From Oscillospiraceae bacterium (GTDB lineage: Bacteria; Bacillota; Clostridia; Oscillospirales; Ruminococcaceae), in contig JAHHUE010000002.1 of assembly GCA_020024155.1 (NCBI GenBank), positions 77-64,076 on the forward strand: 64,000 nucleotides of DNA, written 5' to 3'. Below, piece after piece: positions 3,707 through 61,850 of this stretch; positions within the stretch are counted from its first letter, which is position 1; the number at the start of each line of letters is the position of its first letter. A program made the position numbers and the translations under genes. The notes under the pieces were generated by a model. The model was not told the DNA's origin. It worked only from the letters and a program-made list of their open reading frames with translations, and did no database searches.

Positions 3707-3856
3707 AATATTTCTCCTTAAAATAATTTATTTGTACTTTAAACGCTATTTATTATTATATACAAATCAAAGCACAATTACAACACAAAACATTTGTAAT
3801 ATAAGTTATGTTATGTTATCATACTAATACTAAAATAAATTATACAAGGAGATTAT

Positions 3857-9979: not shown

Positions 9980-10030
9980 ATATATTCCTTCTTAATATTT
10001 TCAATTACATCTAACCGTATAATTATACTA

Positions 10031-12968: not shown

Positions 12969-13077
12969 ATTTTTACCCCATATTAAATAATAATTTACTT
13001 ATTAGTATACCATATTTCTGCAATTTATGGTATAATATTTGACTACAAAATAATTTATTTTTTTAAACGAGGTTTTA

Positions 13078-14046
13078 ATGGAAATTAAAGGTTTAAATAT
13101 AAAAAATAAAGCTGTTCTTGCTCCAATGGCCGGTTTTTGCGACATTGTTATGCGTAAAGTTGCTGATGATTTTGACGCTGGCTTTACTGTTAGTGAACTT
13201 ATCAGTGCAAGAGCTTTATATTATGGCGATAAAAAAAGTCACACTCTTATGGATAATTTTGACTGTAAAAGTCCGTATGGTATTCAGCTTTTTGGCTTTG
13301 AGCCAAATGATTTTATTTCTGCAACAGAACACACTTTAAAGCACAATCCGGATTTTATTGATATAAATATGGGTTGTCCTGCACCTAAAATAGTTAATAA
13401 CGGCAGCGGCAGTGCTCTTATGAAAACACCAGAGCTTGCACAGCAAATTGCAAAGACTGTTGTTGATAATGCAAAAGGCTTGCCAGTAAGTGTAAAAATG
13501 CGTAAAGGCTGGGACGAAAACTGTATAACTGCTGTTGAGCTTGCAAAACGATGTGAAGATGTGGGTGTAAGTTTCATTACTGTTCACGCAAGAACAAGAG
13601 TAGAAATGTATAACCCTGGTATTGACCTTGATATAATCAAAGCTGTAAAACAAGCTGTAAATATTCCTGTTATAGGAAACGGTGATATAACTTGCCCAGA
13701 AGATGCAATAAAAATGATGGATTACACCGGTTGTGATTATGTTATGGTTGGCAGAGAAGCGTTAAGCCGTCCTTGGATATTCAAACAGATTAAACAAGCT
13801 ATTAACGGCGAAACTATTGACAGTGACCCAACTATTGAAGAGAGAATGAAATTATTGTTGTGGCACATTGAAAAGCTATGTGAAGTAAACGGTGAAAGTG
13901 CCGGTATGAAAAAAGCTCGTGGGCAGGCAGCTTTGTATATGAAAGGTCTGCGTGGAGCAGCTCATTTAAGATATCTTACTAATAGCTTAACGGTATTTGA
14001 TGATGCAAAAAATCTTGTTAATGAGGTATTAAAAGAAAATGTTTAA
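13078..14046 (+). CDS. dusB: tRNA dihydrouridine synthase DusB
   Basis: LAPMAG...DINMGCP...HARTR motifs in 322 aa. Confidence 0.9.
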   Translation: MEIKGLNIKNKAVLAPMAGFCDIVMRKVADDFDAGFTVSELISARALYYGDKKSHTLMDNFDCKSPYGIQLFGFEPNDFISATEHTLKHNPDFIDINMGCPAPKIVNNGSGSALMKTPELAQQIAKTVVDNAKGLPVSVKMRKGWDENCITAVELAKRCEDVGVSFITVHARTRVEMYNPGIDLDIIKAVKQAVNIPVIGNGDITCPEDAIKMMDYTGCDYVMVGREALSRPWIFKQIKQAINGETIDSDPTIEERMKLLLWHIEKLCEVNGESAGMKKARGQAALYMKGLRGAAHLRYLTNSLTVFDDAKNLVNEVLKENV

Positions 14047-14623
14047 TTTTAACGCTCTTGTTTCTCGTATAAAATATATTCCAAGATGGAGTCTTATGCG
14101 ACAAAGCCGTCAGGAATTTTTGGCAGAACATACAACAGAAGTTATGCAAATAGCACATACTCTTGCTGCAATTGCAAATAAAAAGTTTGGTCAGAATGTA
14201 AATACAGAAAATATAATTATTTGTGGTTTATACCACGATATAAGCGAAATTTTAACCGGAGATATGCCAACTCCTGTTAAATATAATGACGAAACTTTAA
14301 AATGTGCTTATAAAGATATGGAAGCAAAAGCAATTGCTAAAATGCTTGAAACAATTGATGAAGATATAAAAGATGATATTTCTCCGTTTGTAACAGCAGA
14401 AAATCTTTCAGAAAGAGAAACAAAGATACTGAAAGCAGCAGACAAATTTTCTGCTCTTATAAAATGTATGGAAGAATTGCAGTGTGGAAATGCTGAGTTT
14501 AAATCTGCGTATACAAGCACAAAACAAAGTCTAGAAGATATGCATCTGCCTGAAATTGACTATTTTATAAAAAATATGTTGCCTTCTTACAGTTTATGTC
14601 TTGATGAGCTTGCAAAAATTTAA
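14039..14623 (+). CDS. yfbR: HD-domain 5'-deoxynucleotidase, YfbR-like
   Basis: Collinear with E. coli YfbR: RW.LMR...EH...YHD.SE.LTGD.PTPVKY...CGN.EF. Confidence 0.85.
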   Translation: MFNFNALVSRIKYIPRWSLMRQSRQEFLAEHTTEVMQIAHTLAAIANKKFGQNVNTENIIICGLYHDISEILTGDMPTPVKYNDETLKCAYKDMEAKAIAKMLETIDEDIKDDISPFVTAENLSERETKILKAADKFSALIKCMEELQCGNAEFKSAYTSTKQSLEDMHLPEIDYFIKNMLPSYSLCLDELAKI

Positions 14624-14642
14624 ACAATAAAGGAGCTATAAG

Positions 14643-16961
14643 TTGAAAAGTTTTTTAAAAAATTCTTATGTTAAAATTTTCATACTTGGTTTTGCCACCT
14701 GTTTTTGCATACTTTTACCTTTTTTAATTATAGATAAAGGCTTTTTCCTATACGCTGGGGATTTTAACAGTCAGCAAATACCATTTAATATGTATGCTAA
14801 CAATATGGTTAAGCAAGGTGCTTTAAATTGGAGTTGGGCAACTGACCTTGGCTCATCAATGATAAACAGCTATTCTTTTTATCTTTTAGGCTCACCTGTT
14901 TTCTGGCTAGGTTGTTTATTTCCATATAAGTTAATGCCGTATTTTTTACCTTTTGGTTTGATGATTAAGTTTGGGTTTGCATCTCTTGGTGCATTTTGCT
15001 TTCTTAAAAGATATTCCAAAAATGAAAACTACGCTTTTGTAGGTGCTATTTTATATGCATTCAGTGGTTTTTCAATTTACAACATATTCTTTAATCACTT
15101 TTTAGAATCTGTTGCTATGTTTCCGTTTTTATTATGGAGCTTAGATGAGTTTATCTATGAAAAACGAAGAGGTTTATTTGCTTTTTTTGTAGCGTTAAAC
15201 CTATTAAATAACTACTTTTTCTTTATTGGTCAAGTTGTTTTTCTGTTTATATATTTTATCTGTAAAATTGTATCAAAAGAATATACTATATCAATAAAAC
15301 AATTTTTTAATCTTGCATTTGAAAGTATACTTGGATGCTTGATGAGTATGGTTCTTTTCTTACCATCTGTTTTAAATATTTTGCAAAATCCTCGCAGTAC
15401 AAAAATGGCAAAGGATTTTGGATTATGGATGTATGGAACTGTACAACAGTATTTTGCAATTGTTCAATCAGCATTTTTCCCACCGGAAAGTCCATACTCT
15501 CCAAACCTGTTTACTCAGGGAAATATCAAGTGGACAAGTATATCTGCATTTGTTGTTCTTGGTGGTATGTTTGGATATTTTATATTTTTAAAATATTTCA
15601 AAAAATCAGCATTTACAAAAATTTTTACTTGTTGTGTTATCTTTGCACTTGTACCAATACTTAACAGCAGTTTCTATATGTTCAATCGCAGTTATTATGC
15701 AAGATGGTTTTATATGCCTATCTTAATTCTCTGTGCAATGAATATGCAAAGTTATGAACTTACAAAAGAAAAAATCTATTACGGTTTAAAAAAAGTTACC
15801 GTTTTAACTTGTATCTTCTGCGTTTTCGGGCTAACACCTTCAACTAATAGTGACGGAAAATTCAAACTTGGTCTTGAAAAAGAAATTCCACTTTTCTGGC
15901 TTTCATTCCTTATTGCAATTTTCAGCATATATATGCTATTTGTTATTGTAGAAAACTATAAAGATAAACCAAAATATTCTCAAAAATTACTTATGACTGC
16001 ATTAAGTATTGTTATGGTTTTTGCAATACTCCATATATCTATTGTTAAATTACCACAGTCAAACGCAGATAGAAATTATATCAAACAAAACTATGCTCCA
16101 CTTGATACTTTTACATTAAATGATGATAGCTCAGATTATCGTCTTGACGCATATCAGTGTTATAATAATATGGGATTGTTTTATAACAAACCATTTATTC
16201 AATTTTTCAACAGCACTGTTACACCTTCTATTATGGATTTTTATCCTTATGTTGGTGTAAAAAGAGATGTATCTTCAAAACCGGAATATTCAAATTACGC
16301 TTTAAGAAGCTTATTATCAGTTAAATATATAGTTATGCCAACTCATGAGGTTGACAATTTCTACGAAGAAGGTTACGATAAAATTTATAGTCCCTACTCT
16401 GTTTCAGAGCCATATAAAATATTTAAAAATGACTATTTTATTCCTATGGGATTTACTTATGATAAATATGTAACCGAAGAGCAAATGCAGCAAGTTGCAG
16501 CTGAAAACCGAAGTAACATTATGCTTAAAGCAATTTTGTGTGATGAAAGTATTGTTGATAACCTAAAACTGTCTTTGGATAAATTAGATAACAGCTTTTT
16601 GAACGACCATTCTTTCGCATCTTTCACCAGTGATGTAGAAGAAAGACGCAATTGCAGTGGATATTATTTTGAGCAGACAAAAGACGGTTTTATCTCTAAT
16701 ATTCAATTGTATCAGCCAAATCTTGTTTTCTACTCTGTTCCTTATGATGAAGGATTTACTGCATATGTAAACGGAGAAGAAACAAAAATATATAAAGTAA
16801 ACGCAGGGCTTTCTGCCGTTTATGCGCCAGCCGGAGATAATGAAATTATTTTCTCTTATCGCACTCCTGGGTTAAATCTTGGAATATTGATAAGCATTTT
16901 AGCCTTAGCAATTTATATAATCTATCTTATAGCAATTTTTAAAAAGAAGGATATAAAGTAA
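14643..16961 (+). CDS. YfhO-family polytopic membrane protein (putative glycosyltransferase)
   Basis: 772 aa with many TM helices and a C-terminal extracytoplasmic domain plus final TM. TTG start preceded by AAGGAG. Confidence 0.75.
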   Translation: MKSFLKNSYVKIFILGFATCFCILLPFLIIDKGFFLYAGDFNSQQIPFNMYANNMVKQGALNWSWATDLGSSMINSYSFYLLGSPVFWLGCLFPYKLMPYFLPFGLMIKFGFASLGAFCFLKRYSKNENYAFVGAILYAFSGFSIYNIFFNHFLESVAMFPFLLWSLDEFIYEKRRGLFAFFVALNLLNNYFFFIGQVVFLFIYFICKIVSKEYTISIKQFFNLAFESILGCLMSMVLFLPSVLNILQNPRSTKMAKDFGLWMYGTVQQYFAIVQSAFFPPESPYSPNLFTQGNIKWTSISAFVVLGGMFGYFIFLKYFKKSAFTKIFTCCVIFALVPILNSSFYMFNRSYYARWFYMPILILCAMNMQSYELTKEKIYYGLKKVTVLTCIFCVFGLTPSTNSDGKFKLGLEKEIPLFWLSFLIAIFSIYMLFVIVENYKDKPKYSQKLLMTALSIVMVFAILHISIVKLPQSNADRNYIKQNYAPLDTFTLNDDSSDYRLDAYQCYNNMGLFYNKPFIQFFNSTVTPSIMDFYPYVGVKRDVSSKPEYSNYALRSLLSVKYIVMPTHEVDNFYEEGYDKIYSPYSVSEPYKIFKNDYFIPMGFTYDKYVTEEQMQQVAAENRSNIMLKAILCDESIVDNLKLSLDKLDNSFLNDHSFASFTSDVEERRNCSGYYFEQTKDGFISNIQLYQPNLVFYSVPYDEGFTAYVNGEETKIYKVNAGLSAVYAPAGDNEIIFSYRTPGLNLGILISILALAIYIIYLIAIFKKKDIK

Positions 16962-45936: not shown

Positions 45937-48492
45937 ATGAAAAATATTGTTATTGGTGTACTTGCTCATGTTGATAGTGGAAAAACCACTTTGTCAGAAA
46001 GTATGTTATATAAATGTAAGAGCATAAGAAAGCTGGGGCGTGTTGATAATGGTGACACTGCTCTTGATACAAATGAAATAGAAAAAAGCCGTGGTATAAC
46101 TGTGTTTTCAAAACAAGCAAAGCTAGTATATAAAAACACAAATATATACCTTTTGGACACACCGGGTCATATTGATTTTTCTGCTGAAATGGAGAGAACT
46201 CTGTCTGTTTTAGATTATGCCATTCTTGTTATAAGTGGTATTGATGGCATACAACATCATACAGAAACTTTATGGAATTTATTGCAAACATATAAAATTC
46301 CTACTATTATTTTTGTAAATAAAATGGATGCTAATATTGCAGATAAAAATAAACTTATTAACGAGTTAAAAAGTAATTTCAGTACATCTTGCATCGATTT
46401 TACAACACTTAATTTCTCAGTTATGGAAGAAATATCAATAACTGATGAAAGTGTTATGGAAAGCTTTTTGGAAACTGAAACTATATCTGATAGCAATATT
46501 GCTCACTTAATAAATCAACGAAAAGTTTTCCCTTGTATTTTTGGTTCTGCCCTAAAAGAACAAGGTGTTGAAGAGTTATTATCAATTCTTGACAGTTACA
46601 CTATTCAACCTGAATACCCTCAACAATTTGGTGCAAAAGTATATAAAATCGGTCACGACGAACAAGGTGGACGCATTACATATCTAAAAATTACTGGTGG
46701 TAATTTAAAACCAAAAGACAGTGTAACCCTTATTGATAAAAATGGTGAAAAATCAATTGAGAAAATAAATCAAATCAGATTGTATACCGGAGAAAAATTT
46801 TCTTCTGAACAATGTGCCGAAAGTGGAACAATTTGTGCTGTAACCGGACTTACAAAAACTTATTCTGGACAAGGTATCGGCATAGAGCATAATCTTGAAC
46901 AAAAACTGTCACAGCCAATATTTACTTATAAAGTTTTAATACTTGATAAAACTGACGCCTTTACAACTTTATCTAAATTCCGTATTCTTGAACAAGAGGA
47001 CCCTCAACTTAATGTTATATGGAATGAACAACTTTCCGAAATTCATGTAAGTCTTATGGGCGAAATTCAACTTGAAGTATTAAAACACATTTTTGCCCAA
47101 AGATTTAGTATTGAAATTGATTTTGACCAAGGTAGTGTTGTCTACAAAGAAACTATACGAAACACTGTTGAAGGTGTTGGTCACTTTGAACCTTTAAGGC
47201 ACTATGCAGAAGTTCATCTTTTACTTGAAAAAATCAAACAAGGCAGTGGCCTTATTTTTGATACTATTTGCAGTGAAGACAGACTGGATAAAAACTGGCA
47301 AAGGCTTATTCTTACTCATCTTACAGAAAAAACTCATTTAGGTGTATTAACCGGCAGCCCTATAACTGATATTAAAATCACATTGGTAAGTGGTAAATCA
47401 CACATAAAGCACACTGACGGCGGAGATTTTCGTCAGGCAACATATCGTGCTGTTCGTCAAGGTCTTATGCAGGCAGAAAGCGTTTTGCTTGAACCGTGGT
47501 ATGACTTTACAATAACTGTATCAAGCGAAAATATTGGTCGTGTTATGACAGATATACAAAAAATGAGTGGTAATTTTGATGCACCTGTTGTAAACGGAGA
47601 TATATCAGTTCTTAAAGGCTCTGTTCCTGTTATAGAGATAAATAATTACAGACAAGATTTTATAAACTTTACTCGTGGAAAAGGCAGAATGACTTGTGTT
47701 TTCAAAGGTTATTTTGAATGTCATAACACTGCACAAGTTATTAGAGAAATAGGATATAACCCAGAAAACGATATTGAAAATTCTGCTGACAGTGTATTTT
47801 GCTCTCATGGTTCTGCAACTGTTGTTAAATGGTATGATGTAAAAGACAATATGCACTTGGAAAGTTTTTTAAAAGAAAAAACAGAGGATTTAACACCGCT
47901 TATAACTCAAAATCAAGTAAGAGAGTATCGTTCTTTTCTTGAACAAGATAAAGAGCTTTTGAAAATTTTTGAAAACACTTATGGAAAAATTAAAACTGAT
48001 AGATATACTGTTTTTAATACTCCAAGTAAGACAGAAACAAAAACCACAACAAATTATAAAACTTATGAACAAGATTACCTTCTTGTTGATGGATATAATA
48101 TAATTTTTGCGTGGGACGATTTAAAAAATCTTGCTCAAAAAAATCTTGATGCTGCCCGTCATAATCTCATAAATACACTTTGTAATTATCAAGGTTTCAA
48201 AAAATGTGAAGTTATTTTAGTTTTTGATGCATACAAAGTAAAAGGCAATACTGGAAGTATTGAAAAATATCACAATATAACTATCGTTTATACAAAAGAG
48301 GCAGAAACTGCTGATATGTATATTGAAAAAACTACTAAAAACTTGGCAAAAAATTATCGTGTGAGAGTTGCAACAAGTGATAATCTTGAGCAAATTATTA
48401 TTCTTGGACATGGTGCAATGCGTTTATCTGCACGCAATTTCAAACAAGAAGTTGATGAAATAGAAAAAGCTATACGAGAAATAATAGAATAA
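45937..48492 (+). CDS. TetM/EF-G-like translational GTPase fused to a C-terminal Rae1/YacP-type NYN ribonuclease domain
   Basis: G1 AHVDSGKT, G3 DTPGH, G4 NKMD and EF-G-like domains II-V. The C-terminal 150 aa (LLVDGYNIIFAW...VFDAYKV...ETADMYIE...VATSDNLEQ...GAMRLSARNF) are collinear with B. subtilis YacP/Rae1. Confidence 0.85.
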   Translation: MKNIVIGVLAHVDSGKTTLSESMLYKCKSIRKLGRVDNGDTALDTNEIEKSRGITVFSKQAKLVYKNTNIYLLDTPGHIDFSAEMERTLSVLDYAILVISGIDGIQHHTETLWNLLQTYKIPTIIFVNKMDANIADKNKLINELKSNFSTSCIDFTTLNFSVMEEISITDESVMESFLETETISDSNIAHLINQRKVFPCIFGSALKEQGVEELLSILDSYTIQPEYPQQFGAKVYKIGHDEQGGRITYLKITGGNLKPKDSVTLIDKNGEKSIEKINQIRLYTGEKFSSEQCAESGTICAVTGLTKTYSGQGIGIEHNLEQKLSQPIFTYKVLILDKTDAFTTLSKFRILEQEDPQLNVIWNEQLSEIHVSLMGEIQLEVLKHIFAQRFSIEIDFDQGSVVYKETIRNTVEGVGHFEPLRHYAEVHLLLEKIKQGSGLIFDTICSEDRLDKNWQRLILTHLTEKTHLGVLTGSPITDIKITLVSGKSHIKHTDGGDFRQATYRAVRQGLMQAESVLLEPWYDFTITVSSENIGRVMTDIQKMSGNFDAPVVNGDISVLKGSVPVIEINNYRQDFINFTRGKGRMTCVFKGYFECHNTAQVIREIGYNPENDIENSADSVFCSHGSATVVKWYDVKDNMHLESFLKEKTEDLTPLITQNQVREYRSFLEQDKELLKIFENTYGKIKTDRYTVFNTPSKTETKTTTNYKTYEQDYLLVDGYNIIFAWDDLKNLAQKNLDAARHNLINTLCNYQGFKKCEVILVFDAYKVKGNTGSIEKYHNITIVYTKEAETADMYIEKTTKNLAKNYRVRVATSDNLEQIIILGHGAMRLSARNFKQEVDEIEKAIREIIE

Positions 48493-51958: not shown

Positions 51959-52813
51959 ATGAAAGATAAAACTTCACTTATTCTTGAAGGTGGTGGAATG
52001 CGTGGTCTTTACACTGCCGGTATACTTGATTATTTTTTAGAAATGGGATTGGAGTTTAACTCTGTATATGGAGTTTCTGCCGGTTGTTTAAACGGTGTAA
52101 ACTTTATTTCAAAGCAAAAAGGACGAAATTTAGCTACATTTACAGACTATCTTGATGACAAAAATTATCGAGGATTGGGAATGTTTTTGAAAACCGGAAA
52201 TTTCTTTAATCCTAAATTTATTTATGATGATATTCCAAATAAATTAAATCTTTTTGATTATGATGCATTTGCCCTTAATCCAACAAACTTTTATGTTGTA
52301 GTTTCAAATATAAAAACAGGACAGGCAGAGTACATAAAATGTGATGATATTGATGGAAGAATGGATTATATTAGGGCATCTGCCAGCCTGCCACTTATAT
52401 CTCAGGTTGTTAAAATTGATGATGACGAATACCTTGACGGTGGTATTTGTGATAGTATTCCTCTTCAAAAAAGCATATTAGATGGCAATGAAAAAAATGT
52501 TGTTATTCTTACTCAGCATAGAGGATTTGTAAAAAAGCAAACAAAAAATCTTGGTATTTTTAAAAGCTTATACAATAAAAAATATCCAAAATTATACGAG
52601 GCTATAAAAAACAGACATCGTATGTACAACAGAGAACTAAAATACTTATATAATGCCGAAGAAAATGGCTCAGCATTTATAATTCAGCCTGACAATGCTC
52701 TTAATGTATCAAGATTGGAAAAAGATAAATATAAACTATATAACCTATATAATATTGGATACCTACAAGCAAAAGAAATGTATCCTAAAATTATTGAATA
52801 TTTAAACTCATAA
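51959..52813 (+). CDS. Patatin-like phospholipase family protein
   Basis: LEGGGMRG oxyanion motif, GVSAG nucleophile elbow and DGG catalytic Asp motif. Confidence 0.9.
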   Translation: MKDKTSLILEGGGMRGLYTAGILDYFLEMGLEFNSVYGVSAGCLNGVNFISKQKGRNLATFTDYLDDKNYRGLGMFLKTGNFFNPKFIYDDIPNKLNLFDYDAFALNPTNFYVVVSNIKTGQAEYIKCDDIDGRMDYIRASASLPLISQVVKIDDDEYLDGGICDSIPLQKSILDGNEKNVVILTQHRGFVKKQTKNLGIFKSLYNKKYPKLYEAIKNRHRMYNRELKYLYNAEENGSAFIIQPDNALNVSRLEKDKYKLYNLYNIGYLQAKEMYPKIIEYLNS

Positions 52814-52894: not shown

Positions 52895-53974
52895 TTTATC
52901 GTCAAACTTTTTCTTTTTGTATACAAATACAAGTATTGTTTATGTACTTAAAGCAAATAAGATTATTGGTAACAATATACCTTTACCACTTGTATTTGGG
53001 CTTAAAGTATTTTAAGGTGCTAGTGCCGTAGTGTTTGGAGTTGGTTTATTCTCTGGTGTTGGTGGAATTATTACTCTTTCTGTAAATGTCCAACTACCGC
53101 TTATATTTTACTACATTATTTTCAACAATTGCAAACCAACCATTAAATGACCATATACCTTTCAAACCATTTTTTTCAGATATAACAATAAATTTGTCAG
53201 TATATTTTTCATCTTTGTTTTGCATAGCCTCTTCTACTGAGCTATAAGTTTTTGTATCTTCTGGTAACTTTTGACCTTGTGGTACTTCTGTGCCTCAATC
53301 ATATACTACGGAAATCTTATGTTCTATATAAGCCCAACTACCTGTACAAGTTACAACAGCATCCTCAATATTTGTAGACCATCCACTGAACACCCAGCTA
53401 CCAACTTTACCATTTTTTGTGCCTTCAAAAGATGTTTTATCAGTATATTTTGTATCTAATGCAGCTATGGCTTCTTCTGCTGATGTATATTTTTTATTAT
53501 CAACCGGAAGTTCAATCTTTTCCTTTACACCTTCTGGTATAATATTATCTTTCCAATTATATTGAATGGTGTAATCTGTTTTTTCTTGAATTAACCCTCG
53601 TATTTCTATATAACAAAACCTTTCTTCATCATTTTTTAATGTAATTTTAAAATCTTTATAACAACCTATGCGACCTAATTTTAAATTTTTAAATATAATC
53701 AAATTTTTTTCTTTATAATATTCAAAGGTATAATATCTCCATTTATATCTTTAAACGGATTTTCAATTACTAATGTTCTGTTATTTCCTAAGTAAAAAGG
53801 CTCTCCATATAAGCTTTGTTCTATTCTTTTTACACTTGTCATTCCTTCAAGTGATTCATTGCTTCCTGTACTGTATGGCATTTGTTCACCCGTAAAAGAT
53901 TGTAAGATACTGTACTTCTGATAATCCTTGAATATTTTCTTTTTCAATATAAATGTCTTGTATATTTTTTGCAT
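52895..53974 (-). pseudogene. Remnant of a cell-wall-anchored surface protein with SHIRT-like repeats
   Basis: Two repeat units (YTIQYNWKDNIIPEGV...KYTDKTSFEGTKNGKVGSWVFSGW and VVYD*GTEVPQGQKLPEDTKTY...KGIWSFNGW). Damage includes TGA at a W position, frameshifts (one apparently in an A7 run) and a lost N-terminus. The C-terminus reads SPNTSGKGILLPIILFALST*TILVFVYKKKK, which resembles a sorting signal. Confidence 0.6.
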
Positions 53975-54080
53975 AATGTATACCTTGTATATTTGTTACT
54001 ATACTATCTTTTGATATCTTAAATTGTATAAGTAATATATCATACTTAAAAATTTTTTTCTTTAACTGTTATTATAACTA

Positions 54081-54125
54081 AAAAGTCAAACTCATTACAA
54101 AGTAAAATGTTTGAGTTTGACTTTT
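54081..54125 (-). terminator. Intrinsic terminator ending the TetR-headed operon
   Basis: AAAAGTCAAACTCA / TGAGTTTGACTTTT 14-bp perfect stem followed by TTTTTAG on the minus strand. Confidence 0.85.
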
Positions 54126-54137
54126 TATATTATTATT

Positions 54138-55082
54138 TTATTTCACATAATCTTTTTGTAGATTGTTTGCTGCAAGATTTTTCTTATACCATTTATTATC
54201 AGTATAAAGTTCTTCCTTTAATGGATTTCTGTGTGTTCTCTTAATAACAATTATTTCATAAATAAATACTGCAACATTTGCAACAAGAGCAATTGCACTG
54301 AGAGCTGTCCAAGCTGTTGGATTATATGTAGCTGTTATGCTAAACATTTCCATAGCTTGATAGTCCACTGCCAGTGAAAACATACCAAAAATAGCCAATG
54401 TCTGTGCACGGTGTTGAAGCCACGCACCTTCTTTGATGAAAAATTCTGCAACAGTACAGCTTATAATAAGAACTACACCTGCATACATAGCTCTTGTTGA
54501 AATGCTATTATAGCAGTATGCTACATTCCATAAGTCATAAGCTAAAATCCAAAACCAAAGTTGGTCTGGCCAAACCATATCTTTTGATTTTGTGTTTGCA
54601 ACTTTTATTCCAACCCAACCTGTCATTGTCAAAAGCAAAAACACGCCTGCCAATGCATTCATCAAGTTCCAAGGTCCACCAAGTACAGTCAAACCTGCTT
54701 CGTCAACTGTAAGCTCTTTAAAAGTTGAAAAAACTTCTATATCACGATATATAGCCTCAATAATATTTATTGCCAAAATTGCTACCGGAAAATACCAAGC
54801 AAACTTTTTATTGCCAAGTTTTGTATAACGAATAAGCATAAAACCTATAACGCCTATAAGTGCAGAATATGTTTTTACAACACCAAACCAAGTTTTACTT
54901 GACGGACTACTTACTATCCCCATTGCAATAAGAACAACAAGCACAACTGGTAAAACACAATATACTGCTATTGATAATGCTTTACTTCTTCGTGTAATTT
55001 CATTTAAAACAACCAACAAAACCACAAGCAATAAAACACCTGCTATTGTAAGCCAAGAATACCCTTCAAAGAAAAATCCCAT
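54138..55082 (-). CDS. Polytopic membrane protein of unknown function (paralog A, 314 aa)
   Basis: About 9 TM helices and an AAAGGAG RBS. Shares collinear motifs with the 57881-58741 product (NI[IL]EA..D, AY..WN, WL..RA.[TS]L[AS]I). Confidence 0.6.
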   Translation of the reverse strand: MGFFFEGYSWLTIAGVLLLVVLLVVLNEITRRSKALSIAVYCVLPVVLVVLIAMGIVSSPSSKTWFGVVKTYSALIGVIGFMLIRYTKLGNKKFAWYFPVAILAINIIEAIYRDIEVFSTFKELTVDEAGLTVLGGPWNLMNALAGVFLLLTMTGWVGIKVANTKSKDMVWPDQLWFWILAYDLWNVAYCYNSISTRAMYAGVVLIISCTVAEFFIKEGAWLQHRAQTLAIFGMFSLAVDYQAMEMFSITATYNPTAWTALSAIALVANVAVFIYEIIVIKRTHRNPLKEELYTDNKWYKKNLAANNLQKDYVK

Positions 55083-55100
55083 TCACAACACTCCTTTTAA

Positions 55101-56264
55101 TTAAAGCATAATTTCAACATCGCTAATTGGATATGCCTTACATGAATGAATATATCCATATTTTTCATCTGCATAACGACGGAGCATACCTTTTGCAAGA
55201 AATACATTACCTGAAACAAGTTTTACACGGCATAGACTACATTCACCACTGCGACAGCAAACATTCACTCTTACACCAGCTCTTTCCAATGCTACAAGTA
55301 TAGACTCGCTTGATTTTGCAGGTATAACTTTATCCCCAACTTTAAGATTAAATACTTCACTTCCATTAAGTTCTTTTGGCCAACCTGGTTCATTTTGAAT
55401 ATCACGGCGTGTACCAAACATTTCTCTACGGATTTTCTTTTCCGGAACACCAAGCACCTGCAATTCTTTTTTACAGAAATCGTTCATAACTTGTGGACCA
55501 CAAATGTATGTTGTGCGTTCTATAAAATCCGGTACTAAACGATAGATAAGCTCACCGTTCATAAATCCTTTTTCTCCTGTCCAACCTTCAACATCATCAG
55601 AAACTATAAGCTGATATTTGAAGTTTGGATATTTTTTTGTGTAAGCAGAAAGCTCTTCATGAAAAAGTGCAACTTGTGGATTGCGACAACCATAAAGCAT
55701 AACAATATCTCTATCAAGAGAAGCTTCTAGAATTTCTCTTGTCATACTCATAAATGGAGTTACACCGCTGCCACCTGCCAAAAATAAAGATTTTTTACTG
55801 TGAAAAACCGGTTGATGACGAAACACCCCTGCCGGACCATTTGCTGTAAATGTATCGCCGATTTTTGCATTTTCAATAAGGTATGATGAAACAAATCCAT
55901 CTGGAATACCTGCAACAGTAATTTCATAATATCCCCTCTGTCTTGGAGATGATGAAATACTATATGGTCTGCTTGTTCTAACACCTTCTATTGTTGTAAA
56001 TATATTTATGTACTGGCCTGCCTCAAATGGTGGCAAATATCCGTCTTTTGATGAAAAACGAATAATTTTTGCATTTTTACCTGTATCAATAACATTACTT
56101 ACCACAAGTTCAAGTTCTTTTTTATGCAAGGCATTAGCCGATTTCGCAACATCTTCTTCACAAATTTTATCAAGTGAAACATTACGCATAACACGAATAT
56201 TTTCCATAACTTCTTCACCGTGAACCAAAGTTCCGAGAAGTGTTTCTTTAATATTTTTAGCCAT
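55101..56264 (-). CDS. FNR-like flavin reductase with C-terminal plant-type 2Fe-2S ferredoxin domain
   Basis: RPYSISS (FAD), GGSGVTP (NAD(P)H) and CRSGECSLCRVKL...HSC (2Fe-2S) motifs. Translationally coupled to the upstream gene. Confidence 0.85.
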   Translation of the reverse strand: MAKNIKETLLGTLVHGEEVMENIRVMRNVSLDKICEEDVAKSANALHKKELELVVSNVIDTGKNAKIIRFSSKDGYLPPFEAGQYINIFTTIEGVRTSRPYSISSSPRQRGYYEITVAGIPDGFVSSYLIENAKIGDTFTANGPAGVFRHQPVFHSKKSLFLAGGSGVTPFMSMTREILEASLDRDIVMLYGCRNPQVALFHEELSAYTKKYPNFKYQLIVSDDVEGWTGEKGFMNGELIYRLVPDFIERTTYICGPQVMNDFCKKELQVLGVPEKKIRREMFGTRRDIQNEPGWPKELNGSEVFNLKVGDKVIPAKSSESILVALERAGVRVNVCCRSGECSLCRVKLVSGNVFLAKGMLRRYADEKYGYIHSCKAYPISDVEIML

Positions 56265-56267
56265 TAG

Positions 56268-57806
56268 TTAAACCTCCTTAGCAACTTTTGATGCAACAGT
56301 ATCTGCGTATGTATAGTTAGGACCAAAGCCACAAGCGTTAACCCAACCGCTTGCAAATTCAAGATTTGGGATTTTACTTTCTGATGGGAAGAAAAATACT
56401 GACTGCATTAAATCCTGTTCATATCCATAAATAGCGCCACCTGGGTGACCAAGATAACGCATATGTGTCAAAGGAGTTGCAACTTCCATTTCTTCAATAT
56501 GTTCTGTAATACCCGGATACATTTTTTCAAGTCTTGCAACAATTCTTCTGCCTGCCTCGTATTTCATTTCATAATACTGCTCAGGTGTGAGTTTTTCCCA
56601 TTCTGTACCATATTTAAGTGTACCTGCTGTTATAATACTTGTTCCTTTTGGGGAAACACTTGGGTCATCAACAGTGTAGCAAGTTGCAACAAGAGGGTCA
56701 TTTTCTGGCAAAAGTTTATAAGCATCTGCAAAGTCTTTATTTGCATCTAAACTTTCATAATTAAGTGTAAATGATGTGTGAAAGCCGATTTCCTCTGGTG
56801 TGCAGTCAAGACCGATAAAGCATGTAATTGCAGAAATACCGACCGTATATGGTTTAAGATATTCTCTTGCACTTTGTGGAACTTCTTTTGGTTCAAGAAG
56901 ATTGCCGTATGTTGCAAGTGGAGAAATATTTGAGATTATCTTTTTAGCACGATATTCAACACCGTTTTCATCTATAACACCAACAGCCTTTCCGTTTTCA
57001 AGAACAATGCGTTTTACACCACAATTAAGTTTAACAACGCCACCCATTCTCTGTGCTGCTTCCATAATGGCTTGGTTCATCATCATTGATGTGCCACATA
57101 GATAAAACGGTTTTGTTTCAAGATAGAAATTTGTACATTTTGCAAGTATTGCAAAAGGAAATCTTGTTGGCGGCATACCCATAAAGCACCAGTAAGCACT
57201 TAAAGCAAGTTTAAGTTTTGGGTTTTTAAAAAATTCATCAAGAACTTCTTGGGTTGATTTAAGAGCATAGTTTGCCAAAGTAGGATATTTTTTTGGAAAA
57301 CCTGCTTTCATAATAGCTTTTTTAATTGCACCAGGTTCTTCTGTACTGCCTGCACTTTTTGCAGCAAAGTCAGCAGATTCTTCACAGAATTTATAAACAG
57401 TATCATAATATTTTCTTATAGATTCAGCCTCTGACGGGAATTCTTTGCAAAGGAAATCTTCACACTCTTTTCTGTCTGATGGCAAACTAATACCTGTTCC
57501 GTCTGGAAAGTTTACACGATAAAGTTCTTTAATCTGTATCCAATCAATTTCATCTTCAATACCATAACGAGCAAATTGTTTTCTAAGTTGACCTGGATTT
57601 TCTTTTGTTCCCATATGGGAAAGTTGGTGTAACGCAATTTCAAATTCAAAACGACCACGACAAAAACTTGAGCCACAACCACCAGGAATATTATGTTTTT
57701 CAAAAAGAATTACACTTTTTCCTTTTTCAGCCAATGTTGCAGCGGCAGCAAGACCACCGTTTCCTGCACCTATGACAATTACATCATACTGATTCATATT
57801 TTTCAC
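56268..57806 (-). CDS. CrtI/phytoene-desaturase-family FAD-dependent oxidoreductase
   Basis: YDVIVIGAGNGGLAAAATLAEKG dinucleotide fold, C-terminal GGAIYG motif, 512 aa. Confidence 0.85.
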   Translation of the reverse strand: MKNMNQYDVIVIGAGNGGLAAAATLAEKGKSVILFEKHNIPGGCGSSFCRGRFEFEIALHQLSHMGTKENPGQLRKQFARYGIEDEIDWIQIKELYRVNFPDGTGISLPSDRKECEDFLCKEFPSEAESIRKYYDTVYKFCEESADFAAKSAGSTEEPGAIKKAIMKAGFPKKYPTLANYALKSTQEVLDEFFKNPKLKLALSAYWCFMGMPPTRFPFAILAKCTNFYLETKPFYLCGTSMMMNQAIMEAAQRMGGVVKLNCGVKRIVLENGKAVGVIDENGVEYRAKKIISNISPLATYGNLLEPKEVPQSAREYLKPYTVGISAITCFIGLDCTPEEIGFHTSFTLNYESLDANKDFADAYKLLPENDPLVATCYTVDDPSVSPKGTSIITAGTLKYGTEWEKLTPEQYYEMKYEAGRRIVARLEKMYPGITEHIEEMEVATPLTHMRYLGHPGGAIYGYEQDLMQSVFFFPSESKIPNLEFASGWVNACGFGPNYTYADTVASKVAKEV

Positions 57807-57880
57807 CTTTCTAATAGCAAGCTGTGTTTAATATATAATTTGTAAAATCCAGCTTATGTTTTTATTCTATATTTTTAGCT

Positions 57881-58741
57881 TTATACTGTTGGTGCTGCCA
57901 AAGGAGCAAATGTAAATGTAATTCCTCCATTTTGCATCATTAACACAATACAAGCACCAATAAGTACAAGATTTATTATCATACATATAATTTGAACAGG
58001 TGTTTGTTTTGTCCACTGAACAAATTTATCAAATTTTTGGTTATAATATTCTCTTTCAAACCAGTCTTTTGCACCAATCTGCATCCAACCACCAATAGAA
58101 AGTGAGTTTGCTCTTAACAACAACCACATGCCAATGCCACCATAAGCACCAAGACCTATTGTACAAAGACAACCTAAAAGTGGAGCTAAAAGGAAACCAA
58201 CATGCATTAAAGCAACAGAGGGAGAAAATTCATTAGTTACAAAAATCCAGTTCCATATTGTATAAGCGATAGCGTACATAATTGTAATTATAGGCAATGC
58301 ACCTTTTGCAAGGTAATAATCTCCAAATGGAGCATCAAATTGCCAAATGCCTCTCAAAACAACAACACCAATAGCCACTGCAAAGCCTGAAATTGCATTA
58401 AAATATTTTTTGTAACGCAAAAGGTCTGTAAGAGTTGCTTCCAAAATATTTACAATGAGCATAAGCATTATTACATCAACATAAACCTGTGGATTAAATA
58501 ATCTAAATGCTGCCAAAATTATAGCTATACGCATTGTAAGCAATGTTGTCAGTTTAAGTTTTTCAAAGAAAACGGGTTTTGCAAGTATCAAAACTAATAT
58601 TGACGGGATAACTACAATTGGAATATTAGCTTCAATAGGGTAAAAAGCTGTTAAAATTGCCAGTCCTGTAATTGCTGCGGTAAACATAATCCATTTGATA
58701 TAGATATCTGCCTTACCTACTTTTTGATTTGCAGTTTGCAT
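57881..58741 (-). CDS. Polytopic membrane protein of unknown function (paralog B, 286 aa)
   Basis: About 8-9 TM helices and a GAAGGAGAG RBS. Motif-level similarity to the 54138-55082 product. Confidence 0.6.
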   Translation of the reverse strand: MQTANQKVGKADIYIKWIMFTAAITGLAILTAFYPIEANIPIVVIPSILVLILAKPVFFEKLKLTTLLTMRIAIILAAFRLFNPQVYVDVIMLMLIVNILEATLTDLLRYKKYFNAISGFAVAIGVVVLRGIWQFDAPFGDYYLAKGALPIITIMYAIAYTIWNWIFVTNEFSPSVALMHVGFLLAPLLGCLCTIGLGAYGGIGMWLLLRANSLSIGGWMQIGAKDWFEREYYNQKFDKFVQWTKQTPVQIICMIINLVLIGACIVLMMQNGGITFTFAPLAAPTV

Positions 58742-58879
58742 AAAATAAACTCTCCTTCAAAATTTTTATTTTGAAACACTATGCTTTTTGCACAATGTTA
58801 AATTACTTAAAATACTTGCATTATCTAAGAATTTTGCCCTTTTATTAAAATAAATCTGCGTTTAATCTATGTTTACAAT

Positions 58880-59506
58880 TTATCTTTTACAATATGCGTC
58901 TGCCATAATATCGCAAAAGCAATCCAATCTTTTTTTTGAAAATTCAATATATTCTTCATCATTTCTGCCACTAACAGCAATTTTTTGTATCAGTCCTAGC
59001 AGAGAGTCAAATGTATCATAATAAAGCATTGCTATGTCTATATCTGTTCTTATACTTCCATCTTCCATACCGTTTTTTATTGCTATTGCAAGTGGACTTA
59101 TTGATTTTTCAGCTGTTAAAACATATCTGTTTTCTATCAATTTGGATTTTCCCATACGATATAAATACGTTTCTGCCTCATGAATAAATACATATTGTTT
59201 TCTATTGTCAAAGCACAAATCTGTGTATGCTTTCAATACCTCTCTAATCTGCTGTGAACCAAGTGTATTTTTATCTACTCTTTCATCGTATTGCTCTTTT
59301 ACTTTATTTTTTAAAATTTTCCAAAATAGCAACAGGGATTCAAAAACTAAATCGGCTTTTGTATCAAAGTAACGAAAAACACTTCTTTCTGTAAGCCCTG
59401 CTTTTTCTGCAACATCAGAAACTTTTGTTTTTTCAATGCCATTTTCTATAAAGCTATTTAAAGCACAATGTAAAACTTTATCTATATTTTTTTCTTTTAC
59501 AGTCAT
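58880..59506 (-). CDS. TetR/AcrR-family transcriptional regulator
   Basis: N-terminal HTH KVSDVAEKAGLTERSVFRYFDTKADLV; 208 aa. Confidence 0.9.
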   Translation of the reverse strand: MTVKEKNIDKVLHCALNSFIENGIEKTKVSDVAEKAGLTERSVFRYFDTKADLVFESLLLFWKILKNKVKEQYDERVDKNTLGSQQIREVLKAYTDLCFDNRKQYVFIHEAETYLYRMGKSKLIENRYVLTAEKSISPLAIAIKNGMEDGSIRTDIDIAMLYYDTFDSLLGLIQKIAVSGRNDEEYIEFSKKRLDCFCDIMADAYCKR

Positions 59507-59549
59507 TTTTTATCGCTCTTATCTATTAAAATTCATTTTGTTATTTTTT

Positions 59550-59566
59550 TGTCAGTCTTACTGACA
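59550..59566. promoter_or_regulatory. Candidate TetR operator TGTCAGT-N3-ACTGACA
   Basis: Perfect 7-bp inverted repeat starting 2 nt downstream of the -10 box of the tetR promoter. Confidence 0.55.
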
Positions 59567-59568
59567 CT

Positions 59569-59597
59569 ATTATATAAAATCCTTTGTAATATTTCAA
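59569..59597 (-). promoter_or_regulatory. Promoter of the TetR-headed operon
   Basis: Minus strand reads TTGAAA, 17 bp, TATAAT. Confidence 0.65.
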
Positions 59598-59832
59598 TAT
59601 AAAGTTAAATATTTTTTTAACAATTATTTTGTGTATTTTTTGTCAACTGCTACAAATTTTATATCTTGCACAATCAAAATTTGATTATAAAATATTTTAT
59701 TTATTAAATATTTTGATGTAATTCTATATTATATTTTTCAAAAATAAAAAACAGACCATATTTTTATATAGTCTGTTTTACTTTTTTATTAAATTATTTT
59801 AGTTTGCTATTCTAAATCAGTGTTAGTTTTAA

Positions 59833-60092
59833 ATAAAAATTTATTCTAAACTTAAAATTATAAATATTCTTTGGAAAAGGGCAATATTACAGCCAAAAAA
59901 ATCTCAGATATTTTAAAAGCTGAAATTGGTTAGAACATAAACACAACCTATACAGTAGTTAAAAAGTGCATTGCCAAAGGAGCTATCAAACGCATTGAAC
60001 CAAATTTTATGTGTCATCCTTTAATTACAAAAGAAGAGGTTCAGGCAGCTGAAACAGAAGAACTTGTAAATAATTTATTTTACAATTCCTAA
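59833..60092 (+). pseudogene. BlaI/MecI/CopY-family repressor remnant
   Basis: LKIINILW (frame 1), then after a frameshift EKGNITAKKISDILKAEIG*NINTTYTVVKKCIAKGAIKRIEPNFMCHPLITKEE. There is a TAG where the conserved W is expected, and no start codon. Confidence 0.6.
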
Positions 60093-60095
60093 AAA

Positions 60096-60344
60096 ATATA
60101 AACACACTGAAAACTGGAATATTCATATTTATGGACAAAAAGAATTTCCCGATGGTATGACTATGAGTGACCACTTATTTGAAGATATAAATGAAACTCA
60201 CAATTGAGAAAAGGAAAAGAATATAGTATTAACCTTGACGGTCAATATTACACTGAACTTGAAATAACTATATTTCTGCCAAACAATGTTAAAAAAACAA
60301 TAAATCTTTTAAATTACAGTCAGTATATAATGTTTAAATTTTAG
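60096..60344 (+). pseudogene. Fragment of an unidentified gene downstream of the BlaI-like remnant
   Basis: Protein-like reading ...NIHIYGQKEFPDGMTMSDHLFEDINETHN*, then after a frameshift KGKEYSINLDGQYYTELEITIFLPNNVKKTINLLNYSQYIMFKF*. No start codon. Confidence 0.3.
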
Positions 60345-60356
60345 TACAATTTAACG

Positions 60357-60406
60357 GTCTATGCCTAGATTTTCTATGAATAAATCTAAGCATAGACTTA
60401 TTTTTA
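60357..60406 (+). terminator. Hairpin terminator after the decayed module
   Basis: GTCTATGCCTAGAT / ATCTAAGCATAGAC stem (one mismatch) followed by TTATTTTTAT. Confidence 0.6.
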
Positions 60407-60512
60407 TACTTATTCTAATTTAATATTCTTATATTATAATTATGTATATACTTGCAATATTAAATATATATACATATAATATCATTATATAATTTTTAAG
60501 AAGGTGAATTGT

Positions 60513-61850
60513 ATGGTAAAAACCGTTGAACCAATGACCAGCGGTCCTATTTGGAAAAGAATCACATTATTTGCATTACCTATCCTTATTGGAAACTTAT
60601 TTCAACAAATGTACAACACTGTTGACTCTTTAATTGTTGGAAACTTTTTAGGAAGTAGTGCTTTGGCTGCCGTAAGTTCCTCAGGTAGCCTTATTTTTAT
60701 GATGATAGGCTTTTTTAGTGGTATTTCAATTGGTGCCGGTGTTATTGTTGCTAGATTATTTGGTGCACAAGACAAAGAAAACTTGCGTACAGCAGTACAC
60801 ACAACTGTTGCTTTTGGTATTCTGGCAGGCATTTTAATGACTTTAATTGGTATTATATTTACCCCACAAATACTCAAAATTATGGGTACTCCGGAAAGTG
60901 TTATGCCTGAATCTGTAACATATTTACAAGTTTATTTTGCAGGCTCTCTTGGCTTTATTATGTACAACATATTTGTTGGTATTTTACAAGCTGTTGGCGA
61001 TAGCCGCCACCCTTTATATTATCTTATCACCTCATCAATAATAAACCTTGTACTAGATATTGTATTTATAGCATTTTTAAACTTTGGTGTTGGTGGTGCA
61101 GCTTTGGCAACAGTTATCTCTCAGTTTGTAAGTGCTGGTCTTTGTATGATTCAGTTAATGAGAACAAAAGATTGTTACAGACTTCAATTAAATAAAATAT
61201 GTTTTAACAAAAATATACTTAAACAAATTTTTACCATCGGTTTACCTTCTGGTATTCAAAACTCTATAACTGCTTTTGCAAATCTGGTTGTACAATCTCA
61301 TATCAACTCTTTTGGAGAAATGGCTATGGCTGGCTGTGGTGCATACAGCAAAATTGAGGGCTTTGCTTTTCTTCCAATAACAAGTTTTACTATGGCTCTT
61401 ACAACATTTGTAAGCCAAAATATTGGTGCAAAAGAATATGAACGCACAAAAGAGGGTGCTCGTTTTGGTATTTTGGCAACTGTTATCCTTTCTGAGCTTA
61501 TAGGTGTAGTTGTATTTATTTTTGCTCAACAAATGATTGCAGCATTTGACCCTACCCCAGAAGTTGTTAACTATGGTATTGCAAAAGCTAAAACAGCATC
61601 ACTGTTTTTCTTCTTATTGGCTTATTCACATTCTATTGCTGCTATAATGCGTGGTGCTGGCAAGTCAATTGTTCCTATGGTTGTTATGATGGCTTTTTGG
61701 TGTGTTGTGCGCGTAAGTTTCTTAACTATCACAATTCCTTTAACTCATAGCATTTATATGTTATTTATTGTTTATCCTCTTACTTGGGCATTAAGTTCTA
61801 TTGCATTCTTTATATACTATAAAAAAGCAGACTGGATGCGATGTATGTAA
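60513..61850 (+). CDS. MATE-family efflux transporter
   Basis: 445 aa and 12 TM, with ALPILIGNLFQQMYNTVDSLIVGNFLG typical of the MATE family. ATG at 60513 preceded by AGAAGGTG. Confidence 0.9.
   Translation: MVKTVEPMTSGPIWKRITLFALPILIGNLFQQMYNTVDSLIVGNFLGSSALAAVSSSGSLIFMMIGFFSGISIGAGVIVARLFGAQDKENLRTAVHTTVAFGILAGILMTLIGIIFTPQILKIMGTPESVMPESVTYLQVYFAGSLGFIMYNIFVGILQAVGDSRHPLYYLITSSIINLVLDIVFIAFLNFGVGGAALATVISQFVSAGLCMIQLMRTKDCYRLQLNKICFNKNILKQIFTIGLPSGIQNSITAFANLVVQSHINSFGEMAMAGCGAYSKIEGFAFLPITSFTMALTTFVSQNIGAKEYERTKEGARFGILATVILSELIGVVVFIFAQQMIAAFDPTPEVVNYGIAKAKTASLFFFLLAYSHSIAAIMRGAGKSIVPMVVMMAFWCVVRVSFLTITIPLTHSIYMLFIVYPLTWALSSIAFFIYYKKADWMRCM

Follow-up and report, generated by a model that had tools for sequence, protein, structure and literature searches.

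We examined a five-gene operon in a 64,000-nucleotide (nt) stretch of DNA from an Oscillospiraceae bacterium (assembly GCA_020024155.1, contig JAHHUE010000002.1, positions 77 to 64,076 of the forward strand), the whole of which is referred to here as the window. Between a promoter and a terminator lie five intact open reading frames (ORFs) on the minus strand, encoding in order a TetR-family repressor, a membrane protein of 286 amino acids (aa), a flavoenzyme, an FNR/2Fe-2S reductase and a DUF5692 membrane protein. An initial annotation, made from the DNA alone, had described five minus-strand genes here, and all five ORFs were found in the sequence. Listed in the direction of transcription, the features are as follows:

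59569-59597, minus strand: promoter TTGAAA-17-TATAAT, sigma-70-type, matching 11 of 12 positions and the top site in a 7-kb scan
59550-59566, no strand assigned: predicted TetR operator, a perfect palindrome (TGTCAGT-N3-ACTGACA) that overlaps the expected transcription start
58880-59506, minus strand: TetR-family repressor, 208 aa (Pfam TetR_N, 45.1 bits against a cutoff of 24)
57881-58741, minus strand: 286-aa polytopic membrane protein, a distant DUF5692 paralog by hhalign, with a Pfam score below cutoff
56268-57797, minus strand: flavin adenine dinucleotide (FAD) enzyme of the CrtI/CRTISO superfamily, 509 aa, assigned from profile matches and full-length structure alignments
55101-56264, minus strand: FNR-type FAD/NAD(P)H reductase with a C-terminal plant-type [2Fe-2S] ferredoxin domain, 387 aa, assigned from Pfam domains
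54138-55082, minus strand: DUF5692 (PF18948) membrane protein, 314 aa, with about nine transmembrane helices (Pfam, 348.8 bits)
54081-54125, minus strand: intrinsic terminator hairpin followed by a T run (-22.6 kcal/mol, z = -7.17)

The control elements agreed with the initial annotation. Its promoter proved to be the best-scoring site of the region, and the perfect palindrome it had placed at the start site begins 2 nt past the -10 box and occurs a single time in the window. The loop of the hairpin at the other end is too long for the terminator scanner, and the hairpin was therefore assessed by folding against 200 shuffles, none of which folded as well; this bears out the strong terminator that had been proposed. 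The Shine-Dalgarno sequence of the reductase gene (AAGGAGG) sits within the final codons of the flavoenzyme gene, again as described. Of the three intergenic gaps first reported, those of 3 nt (flavoenzyme to reductase) and 18 nt (reductase to DUF5692) stood, whereas the gap of 74 nt ahead of the flavoenzyme gene becomes 83 nt after a correction of the start codon. The flavoenzyme had been read as a 512-aa protein from GTG 57806. Because this GTG falls within a Shine-Dalgarno sequence (AAAGGTG), the orthologs are 509 aa long and an identical protein of 509 aa exists in an NCBI record, the predicted start is almost certainly ATG 57797 (MNQYD...). A riboswitch or other RNA leader was rejected after an Rfam scan of positions 53000-61000, which returned no match at E <= 0.1. 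We also observed a terminator-like hairpin with a 14-bp stem and a T run at 59748-59779 on the same strand, about 150 nt upstream of the operon promoter in a 1-kb AT-rich spacer (59507-60503). No minus-strand gene lies upstream of it, where ORFs are all shorter than 50 aa; its role may be to insulate the operon or to terminate a small transcript that is not annotated.

The flavoenzyme carries an N-terminal GxGxxG dinucleotide-binding motif (VIGAGNGGLAAA), and its Pfam matches are generic (Amino_oxidase/NAD_binding_8). Its top NCBIfam models were carot_isom TIGR02730 (177.1 bits against a cutoff of 586.9) and crtI_fam TIGR02734 (140.6 bits against 238.1), neither of which it reaches. When a profile of its orthologs was compared with the PDB, full-length alignments (residues ~5-500) were obtained with 4rep (CrtD-type), 4dgk (CrtI) and the uncharacterised 3ka7 only, and the E-values for 4dgk and 4rep were 1e-27 and 3e-23. 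Amine oxidases, LSD1 and the other PDB matches cover residues ~3-55 only. The initial annotation had counted a grouping with amine oxidases against its own proposal; the enzyme groups with the CrtI/CRTISO-type enzymes. By profile comparison it is a CrtI-type enzyme that lies outside every curated functional family. In public records the proteins of the operon bear generic names, namely 'phytoene desaturase family protein', '2Fe-2S iron-sulfur cluster-binding protein', 'DUF5692 family protein' and 'hypothetical protein'.

The reductase contains FAD_binding_6, NAD_binding_1 and Fer2 in that order, all three above the Pfam cutoff, preceded by a conserved N-terminal extension of ~50 residues. Its motifs include RPYSISS, GGSGVTP and CRSGECSLC...29...C, which corresponds to CX4CX2CX29C. 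Domain order and cysteine spacing place it among the FNR reductases with a fused ferredoxin (the class of phthalate dioxygenase reductase, PaaE and Hcr), and it falls below the cutoff of each named reductase: GbcB (167 against 500 bits), Hcr (161 against 383), PaaE (150 against 421) and BenC (135 against 430).

We then asked how these genes are arranged elsewhere by scanning one genome per GTDB species, which yielded 61 loci with flavoenzymes 60-94% identical to that of the window. They come from Oscillospiraceae, Faecousia, Ruminococcus, Christensenella, Blautia, Muricomes, Acetatifactor and Solobacterium, from Bacilli/Mollicutes-type metagenome-assembled genomes (MAGs), Anaeroplasmataceae and a Treponemataceae MAG, and from the cultured human isolate Pygmaiobacter massiliensis, whose strain Marseille-P3336 has the complete operon (WP_102050247.1, WP_102050248.1, WP_242965899.1 and WP_102050249.1); the module is widespread in gut genomes of Oscillospiraceae, Lachnospiraceae, Christensenellales type and Bacilli/Mollicutes type. 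The flavoenzyme and reductase genes are adjacent at 59 of the 61 loci, and at the other two (L060 and L061) the contig stops before the partner gene. Their junction measured 4-10 nt at all 36 loci for which it was determined. Among the 34 complete loci, defined by at least 2.5 kb of flank on both sides, 26 have the 286-aa gene and 23 have DUF5692, always alongside its 286-aa paralog. The initial annotation had regarded a loss of synteny among the four genes downstream of tetR as fatal to its proposal, and synteny was found, for the core pair nearly throughout and for both membrane genes in those 23 loci. When the neighbouring ORFs of all 61 loci were clustered, the recurrent extras were TetR types and IsrA-like, HypA and HypB proteins only. 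Carotenoid biosynthesis genes (phytoene or squalene synthase, cyclases or other crt genes) were present neither in the flanks within the window nor among these recurrent neighbours, in keeping with the earlier statement that this is not a classical carotenoid cluster. One Mollicutes-labelled MAG (L058:5202-6736) carries the flavoenzyme gene as two separate ORFs (163 and 348 aa), which points to either a pseudogene or a frameshift in the assembly.

Of the 59 loci measured, 58 encode flavoenzymes 75-94% identical to that of the window; the exception is the Treponemataceae MAG, at 60%. Judged from these values, purifying selection on the flavoenzyme is extreme across several bacterial classes, and appears comparable to that on core housekeeping proteins. 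GC content at third codon positions (GC3) of the flavoenzyme genes spans 0.13-0.92 and follows that of the locus as a whole (0.25-0.65); the genes are therefore adapted to their hosts, which argues against recent transfer. Plasmid carriage was also considered as a cause of the cross-class conservation and rejected, since GC3 tracks the hosts and no close plasmid homolog was found, the best being 31% identical. This homolog, on a plasmid of Ligilactobacillus acidipiscis, is full-length, has a divergent TetR gene and is followed directly by an FNR-like gene whose product is 32% identical to the reductase (E 3e-27) and has no 2Fe-2S domain. The trio (L071, NZ_CP113927.1, locus 9571-15500) stands in a flavin-centred neighbourhood, in which it is followed by genes for an alpha-hydroxy-acid oxidase, a pyruvate oxidase, an FAD synthetase family protein and riboflavin biosynthesis.

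The two membrane proteins were said in the initial annotation to be divergent paralogs. Pairwise, the relationship is marginal (BLASTP, E 0.008), but hhalign of the two ortholog alignments supports it (94.5%, E 8e-8, 124 columns), and the shared motifs that had been cited (N-I-x-E-A, Y-x-x-W-N and W-L-x-x-R-A) lie inside these columns. The 314-aa protein matches DUF5692 over model positions 4-301 of 304 (E 3e-104), far above the gathering threshold of 27 bits. The 286-aa protein misses that threshold (16.5 bits, E 0.005), and some of its orthologs carry a precomputed PF18948 match; by the Pfam rule it is not a family member and is best described, from these alignments, as a distant relative. 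Its own family is small (363 matches). AlphaFold models of both proteins have about nine transmembrane helices and short hairpins, with a predicted local distance difference test (pLDDT) score of 87.4 and a predicted template modelling (pTM) score of 0.85 for the 314-aa protein, and 87.0 and 0.86 for the 286-aa protein. A Foldseek search of 350,542 PDB chains gave no significant match for either (best E 0.17 with a TM-score of 0.29, and best E 0.3, respectively). Membership of a known transporter family had been named as a finding that would overturn the proposal; neither model has the fold of a solved transporter or membrane enzyme. The positive-inside rule suggests an N-out, C-in topology for DUF5692.

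Beyond the module, DUF5692 is a family of 407 clusters at 50% identity among 1.84 billion representatives, found also in aerobic Actinobacteria, Paenibacillus, Clostridia and spirochaetes. A TetR gene adjoins DUF5692 in 5 of 10 sampled genomes outside the module, namely Nocardioides, Microbacterium and Mumia (divergent, TetR_C_8 type), Sanguibacter and a spirochaete, and the other five have no adjacent regulator. Some of these TetR-DUF5692 pairs have a CBAH-family hydrolase or a fatty-acid desaturase nearby. The residues that never vary within the module subfamily (42-89% identity) are for the most part Asn, Asp, Glu, Arg, Trp and Tyr, plus one His; across the family as a whole, where the aligned sequences diverge more, invariance is confined to F, G, W, R, T and L. 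No conserved His/Cys set for binding metal or haem was seen, there being one invariant His in the subfamily and none family-wide, which argues against a metal or haem redox site. The pattern of conservation would suit a carrier, or a site that binds an amphipathic ligand. In our literature search DUF5692 was mentioned in a single paper (PMC10134865). Two kinds of unusual family members were also noted. One 814-aa protein (P0300) joins a large serine recombinase (Resolvase, Recombinase, Zn_ribbon_recom and DUF4368) in frame to the C-terminal half of a DUF5692 protein; we rejected this as a domain fusion and regard it as a mobile element inserted into a DUF5692 gene. Five proteins of ~400-420 aa (P0285, P0289, P0293, P0308 and P0340) have an N-terminal hydrophobic segment and a soluble domain of ~110 aa ahead of DUF5692. 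The extra domain has no Pfam or PDB sequence match, is probably extracytoplasmic by topology and could serve to capture a ligand.

Of 40 sources that carry tetR, 38 have the window palindrome, with at most 2 mismatches, within the 200 nt upstream of that gene; the other two are cut by contig ends. Many related loci have the extended form AAT-TGTCAGT-N3-ACTGACA-ATT. The TetR proteins are only 32-60% identical. At 29 of 39 sites a -10-like hexamer ends 0-6 nt ahead of the palindrome, and TTGA/TTGC -35-like elements lie upstream. Where an IsrA-like gene is divergent from tetR, the operator is found between both genes. The conserved palindrome is thus a strong phylogenetic footprint of a predicted repressor operator at the transcription start, and the window gene is accordingly read as a TetR repressor acting at its own promoter. 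Its TetR type occurs in 23 of the 34 complete loci, and a second TetR type in some others. The solved structures nearest to it are TtgR, KstR2 and FadR, all sensors of lipophiles, which do not discriminate between ligands. At one locus (L013) neither tetR nor the 286-aa gene was detected, and an operator palindrome with 2 mismatches lies at 3783-3799 behind a TATAAT box, ~240 nt ahead of the flavoenzyme gene; its regulator may come from a gene at another place in the genome.

An operon for a putative isoprene reductase, isrA-hypA-hypB, has been reported in Acetobacterium wieringae together with 'clade 9' homologs, and IsrA (VUZ27132.1) is proposed to reduce the conjugated diene of an unfunctionalised hydrocarbon (PMC10134865). 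DUF5692 (co-occurrence 0.4) and TetR (0.21) are frequent neighbours of the clade-9 homologs, and an oleate hydratase lies near them in A. woodii and A. fimetarium (PMC10134865). In our set an IsrA-type gene stands beside the module at 22 of the 61 loci (13 of the 34 complete ones), with the nickel chaperone HypA adjoining in 20 and HypB in some. These proteins of ~890 aa have 4Fe-4S, Fer4_20 and Pyr_redox_2 domains and match GltD/NfnB-like models; their assignment to the IsrA type was made from architecture and neighbours. The gene occurs in at least three arrangements: in the interval between tetR and the first membrane gene, divergent from tetR, and downstream of the reductase. Such linkage suggests a stepwise hydrogenation of polyunsaturated substrates.

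Taken together, we consider it slightly better than an even bet that the operon encodes a TetR-repressed, ligand-inducible, NAD(P)H-driven two-component C=C saturase for a lipophilic, gut-derived substrate. A lipophilic inducer would free TetR from its operator, and the FNR-type protein would then take a hydride from NAD(P)H onto its FAD and pass single electrons through the [2Fe-2S] domain to the FAD of the CrtI/CRTISO-like enzyme. The latter, probably membrane-peripheral like CrtI, would hydrogenate a double bond of a long hydrophobic chain such as an unsaturated fatty acid or an isoprenoid or polyene. The two nine-helix proteins of the DUF5692 superfamily would be accessory, with a probable part in the uptake, presentation or expulsion of substrate or product at the membrane. 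Gene and domain content, synteny, the operator footprint, conservation, the orphan fold and the linkage to IsrA were observed; from sequence, gene context and what is known of the families we infer the electron path, the reductive direction, the role of the membrane proteins and the class of substrate. NAD(P)H, at about -320 mV, is able to drive alkene reduction and unable to accept electrons from C-C desaturation, and RetSat, a relative on the CRTISO branch, is said to be a saturase (a result ascribed to Moise et al. 2004). The reductive direction is favoured because the partner is NAD(P)H-linked, the hosts are anaerobic and RetSat provides a precedent for saturation; the constant and apparently translationally coupled reductase likewise favours net reduction. 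Physical linkage to genes for IsrA-type alkene reductases strengthens the reading of a lipophilic substrate and a reductive reaction. As for the substrate itself, unsaturated C18 fatty acids are the most abundant candidate in the habitats of the hosts, and isoprenoids (carotenoids, retinoids, phytol or squalene) are candidates that would suit the flavoenzyme family better.

Several points weigh against a saturase. The flavoenzyme scores below all NCBIfam cutoffs, and on that measure its chemistry is not transferable from a characterised equivalog. The window has no IsrA-like gene within its 64 kb by tblastn, and hence no IsrA-type operon (a ~900-aa GltD-like Fe-S flavoprotein with hypA/hypB). 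The locus search finds close relatives only, and its sample consists mostly of MAGs with taxonomic labels that may be imperfect. Eight complete loci are without both membrane genes and have the flavoenzyme and reductase only, accompanied in six of them by TetR. Because of these eight loci the membrane genes appear dispensable for catalysis; by gene content the flavoenzyme-reductase pair is the catalytic core and the membrane pair accessory. By record title five of the eight are Bacilli, Mollicutes or Anaeroplasmataceae, and no consistent replacement for the membrane pair was found among them. At one of the Bacilli loci without DUF5692-type genes (L035:8725-10064), a second TetR-like gene (202 aa) and a gene for a 236-aa hydrophobic protein lie downstream of the reductase gene and may be an alternative accessory pair.

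A further objection is that CRTISO and CrtI can use reduced FAD for redox-neutral isomerisation (PMC3382138), such that a reductase partner is no proof of net reduction. A reduced-flavin isomerase is the main rival, although we judge it unlikely: the enzyme would shift double bonds in geometry (cis-trans) or position, and the FNR/2Fe-2S protein would merely keep its FAD reduced. The best NCBIfam match, at 177 bits, is after all a carotenoid isomerase, CRTISO needs reduced FAD for a non-redox reaction, and CrtI isomerises with reduced FAD under anoxia (PMC3382138). In genomes with IsrA the isomerase could make a conjugated diene for the IsrA-type enzyme to reduce, mirroring the logic of linoleate biohydrogenation; IsrA is proposed to act on such a diene, and its homologs adjoin the module at more than a third of the loci. 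However, 39 of the 61 loci, including the window, show no IsrA-like gene nearby, flavins readily stay reduced in strict anaerobes, and a dedicated, coupled reductase that is kept even at 31% identity suits a stoichiometric demand for electrons better than the occasional re-reduction of a flavin. It is distinctly less probable that the operon serves to detoxify a plant compound or xenobiotic that is not a lipid, for example a phenylpropanoid, stilbene, terpenoid or drug, with the flavoenzyme reducing a C=C or other bond and the DUF5692 proteins acting as TetR-controlled carriers for efflux or uptake. A TetR gene beside a membrane protein gene is the classic layout of inducible efflux, TetR-DUF5692 pairs free of any enzyme exist in Actinobacteria, TtgR is a sensor of plant antimicrobials and the hosts inhabit herbivore and omnivore guts. 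Yet long polyene or isoprenoid chains are the substrates of every characterised full-length relative of the flavoenzyme, and the IsrA family that lies alongside has been linked to an unfunctionalised hydrocarbon (PMC10134865).

We give still less credence to endogenous lipid remodelling, in which the module would saturate the cell's own or scavenged membrane acyl or isoprenoid chains and so adjust membrane properties. MAGs labelled Bacilli, Mollicutes and Anaeroplasmataceae probably have reduced genomes and are likely to depend on exogenous lipids, and it is in MAGs so labelled that the trio of TetR, flavoenzyme and reductase is kept; the very strong protein conservation would also fit. A TetR operator at the start site, however, suggests induction by an external ligand, and no lipid biosynthesis genes recur nearby. 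Hardly credible, finally, is a classical oxidative desaturase whose substrate electrons would reach NAD(P)+, or a membrane acceptor involving DUF5692, by way of the 2Fe-2S/FNR protein. Desaturation with O2 or quinones is the normal activity of CrtI enzymes (PMC3382138), but with NAD(P)+ as acceptor the desaturation of a C-C bond runs steeply uphill, the hosts are anaerobes of the gut, DUF5692 has no conserved His/Cys set for metal or haem, and there are no carotenoid genes nearby. As a precedent for a CrtI/amine-oxidase type of reductase we considered BfaA, the 10-methylene-stearate reductase, and dropped it, since the paper describes it as an 'FAD-linked oxidoreductase' and compares it with MurB.

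The saturase that we prefer would share features with several known systems and coincide with none of those compared here. RetSat (all-trans-retinol 13,14-reductase) and CRTISO belong to the same flavoprotein superfamily as the module flavoenzyme, and both use reduced FAD on long hydrophobic polyenes, RetSat for a net saturation. We know of no dedicated, translationally coupled FNR/2Fe-2S reductase or DUF5692 partner for either of them. The module enzyme differs further in scoring 177 bits against a CRTISO cutoff of 587 and in belonging to gut anaerobes, where genes for carotenoids or retinoids are absent from its surroundings. For CRTISO, reduced-flavin chemistry has been documented (PMC3382138). 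With the desaturases CrtI and CrtD (4dgk and 4rep) it shares the GxGxxG FAD fold and likely membrane-peripheral action, but CrtI sends the electrons of its substrate to O2 or quinones, whereas the module partner is NAD(P)H-linked, which implies the opposite electron flow. The IsrA operon, like the module, concerns the reduction of unactivated or conjugated C=C bonds in anaerobes, although IsrA is a Ni-associated Fe-S flavoprotein unrelated to the CrtI-type flavoenzyme, and the neighbourhood analysis of its clade-9 homologs lists no CrtI-type enzyme (PMC10134865). Phthalate dioxygenase reductase, PaaE, Hcr and GbcB have the domain order of the module reductase and serve oxygenases or the hybrid-cluster protein, in contrast to the module, where the partner is a CrtI-type flavoenzyme in anaerobes. 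In pairs of TetR and efflux genes of the TtgR type, as in the module, the repressor heads the operon or diverges from the membrane gene and a palindromic operator lies at the promoter. DUF5692, however, has no sequence or fold relation to MFS, RND, ABC, MATE or any solved transporter, and a transport role is putative.

Milk, meat and the colon owe part of their fatty-acid composition to the hydrogenation of unsaturated lipids by anaerobes of the gut and rumen. The isomerases of biohydrogenation are better characterised than its reductases according to a 2026 study (PMC13188719), and our literature search for gene-level biohydrogenation reductases, conjugated linoleic acid (CLA) reductase and CrtI-type saturases in gut anaerobes found nothing specific. 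It is possible, if doubtful, that the CrtI-like/FNR pair and the IsrA-type nickel enzyme together are the missing biohydrogenation reductases of gut and rumen, with the DUF5692 proteins as lipid hand-over proteins of a new fold. The targets of the enzymes would then be double bonds, unactivated as well as conjugated, in unsaturated fatty acids from the diet or in phytol, carotenoids or sterols, and the DUF5692 proteins would pass membrane-dissolved lipids to soluble reductases. In any case the module is a concrete, testable candidate for a lipid C=C reductase, linked to the only known candidate reductase for unfunctionalised alkenes. No paper on the gene set was found in our literature search, and the combination of a CrtI-type flavoenzyme with an FNR/2Fe-2S protein, together with a membrane family of orphan fold, is previously undescribed. 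If the proposal is true, the flavoenzyme would be the first of the CrtI family with a dedicated NAD(P)H/2Fe-2S electron donor, and the operon would offer the first functional handle on DUF5692.

Finally, we looked at the genes that flank the operon. The patatin-like lipase, MATE and RmuC genes were considered as parts of the module and rejected, since they are not conserved with it elsewhere. The first of these (51959-52813, plus strand) encodes a patatin-like phospholipase with a C-terminal DUF6363 domain; it is convergent to the operon, 1.3 kb past the terminator, and its product could release free fatty acids. Directly downstream of the terminator are two overlapping minus-strand ORFs of 135 and 91 aa (53295-53974), the first with a single SHIRT domain, which look like the remnants of a surface-protein gene or a very short version of one. 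Farther away, an 851-aa ORF on the plus strand (45937-48492) encodes an EF-G/Tet(M)-like translational GTPase (GTP_EFTU, EFG_III, EFG_IV and EFG_C) that ends in a YacP-like NYN ribonuclease domain (E 3.5e-51); it is unusual for a GTPase that binds the ribosome to be joined to a nuclease domain.

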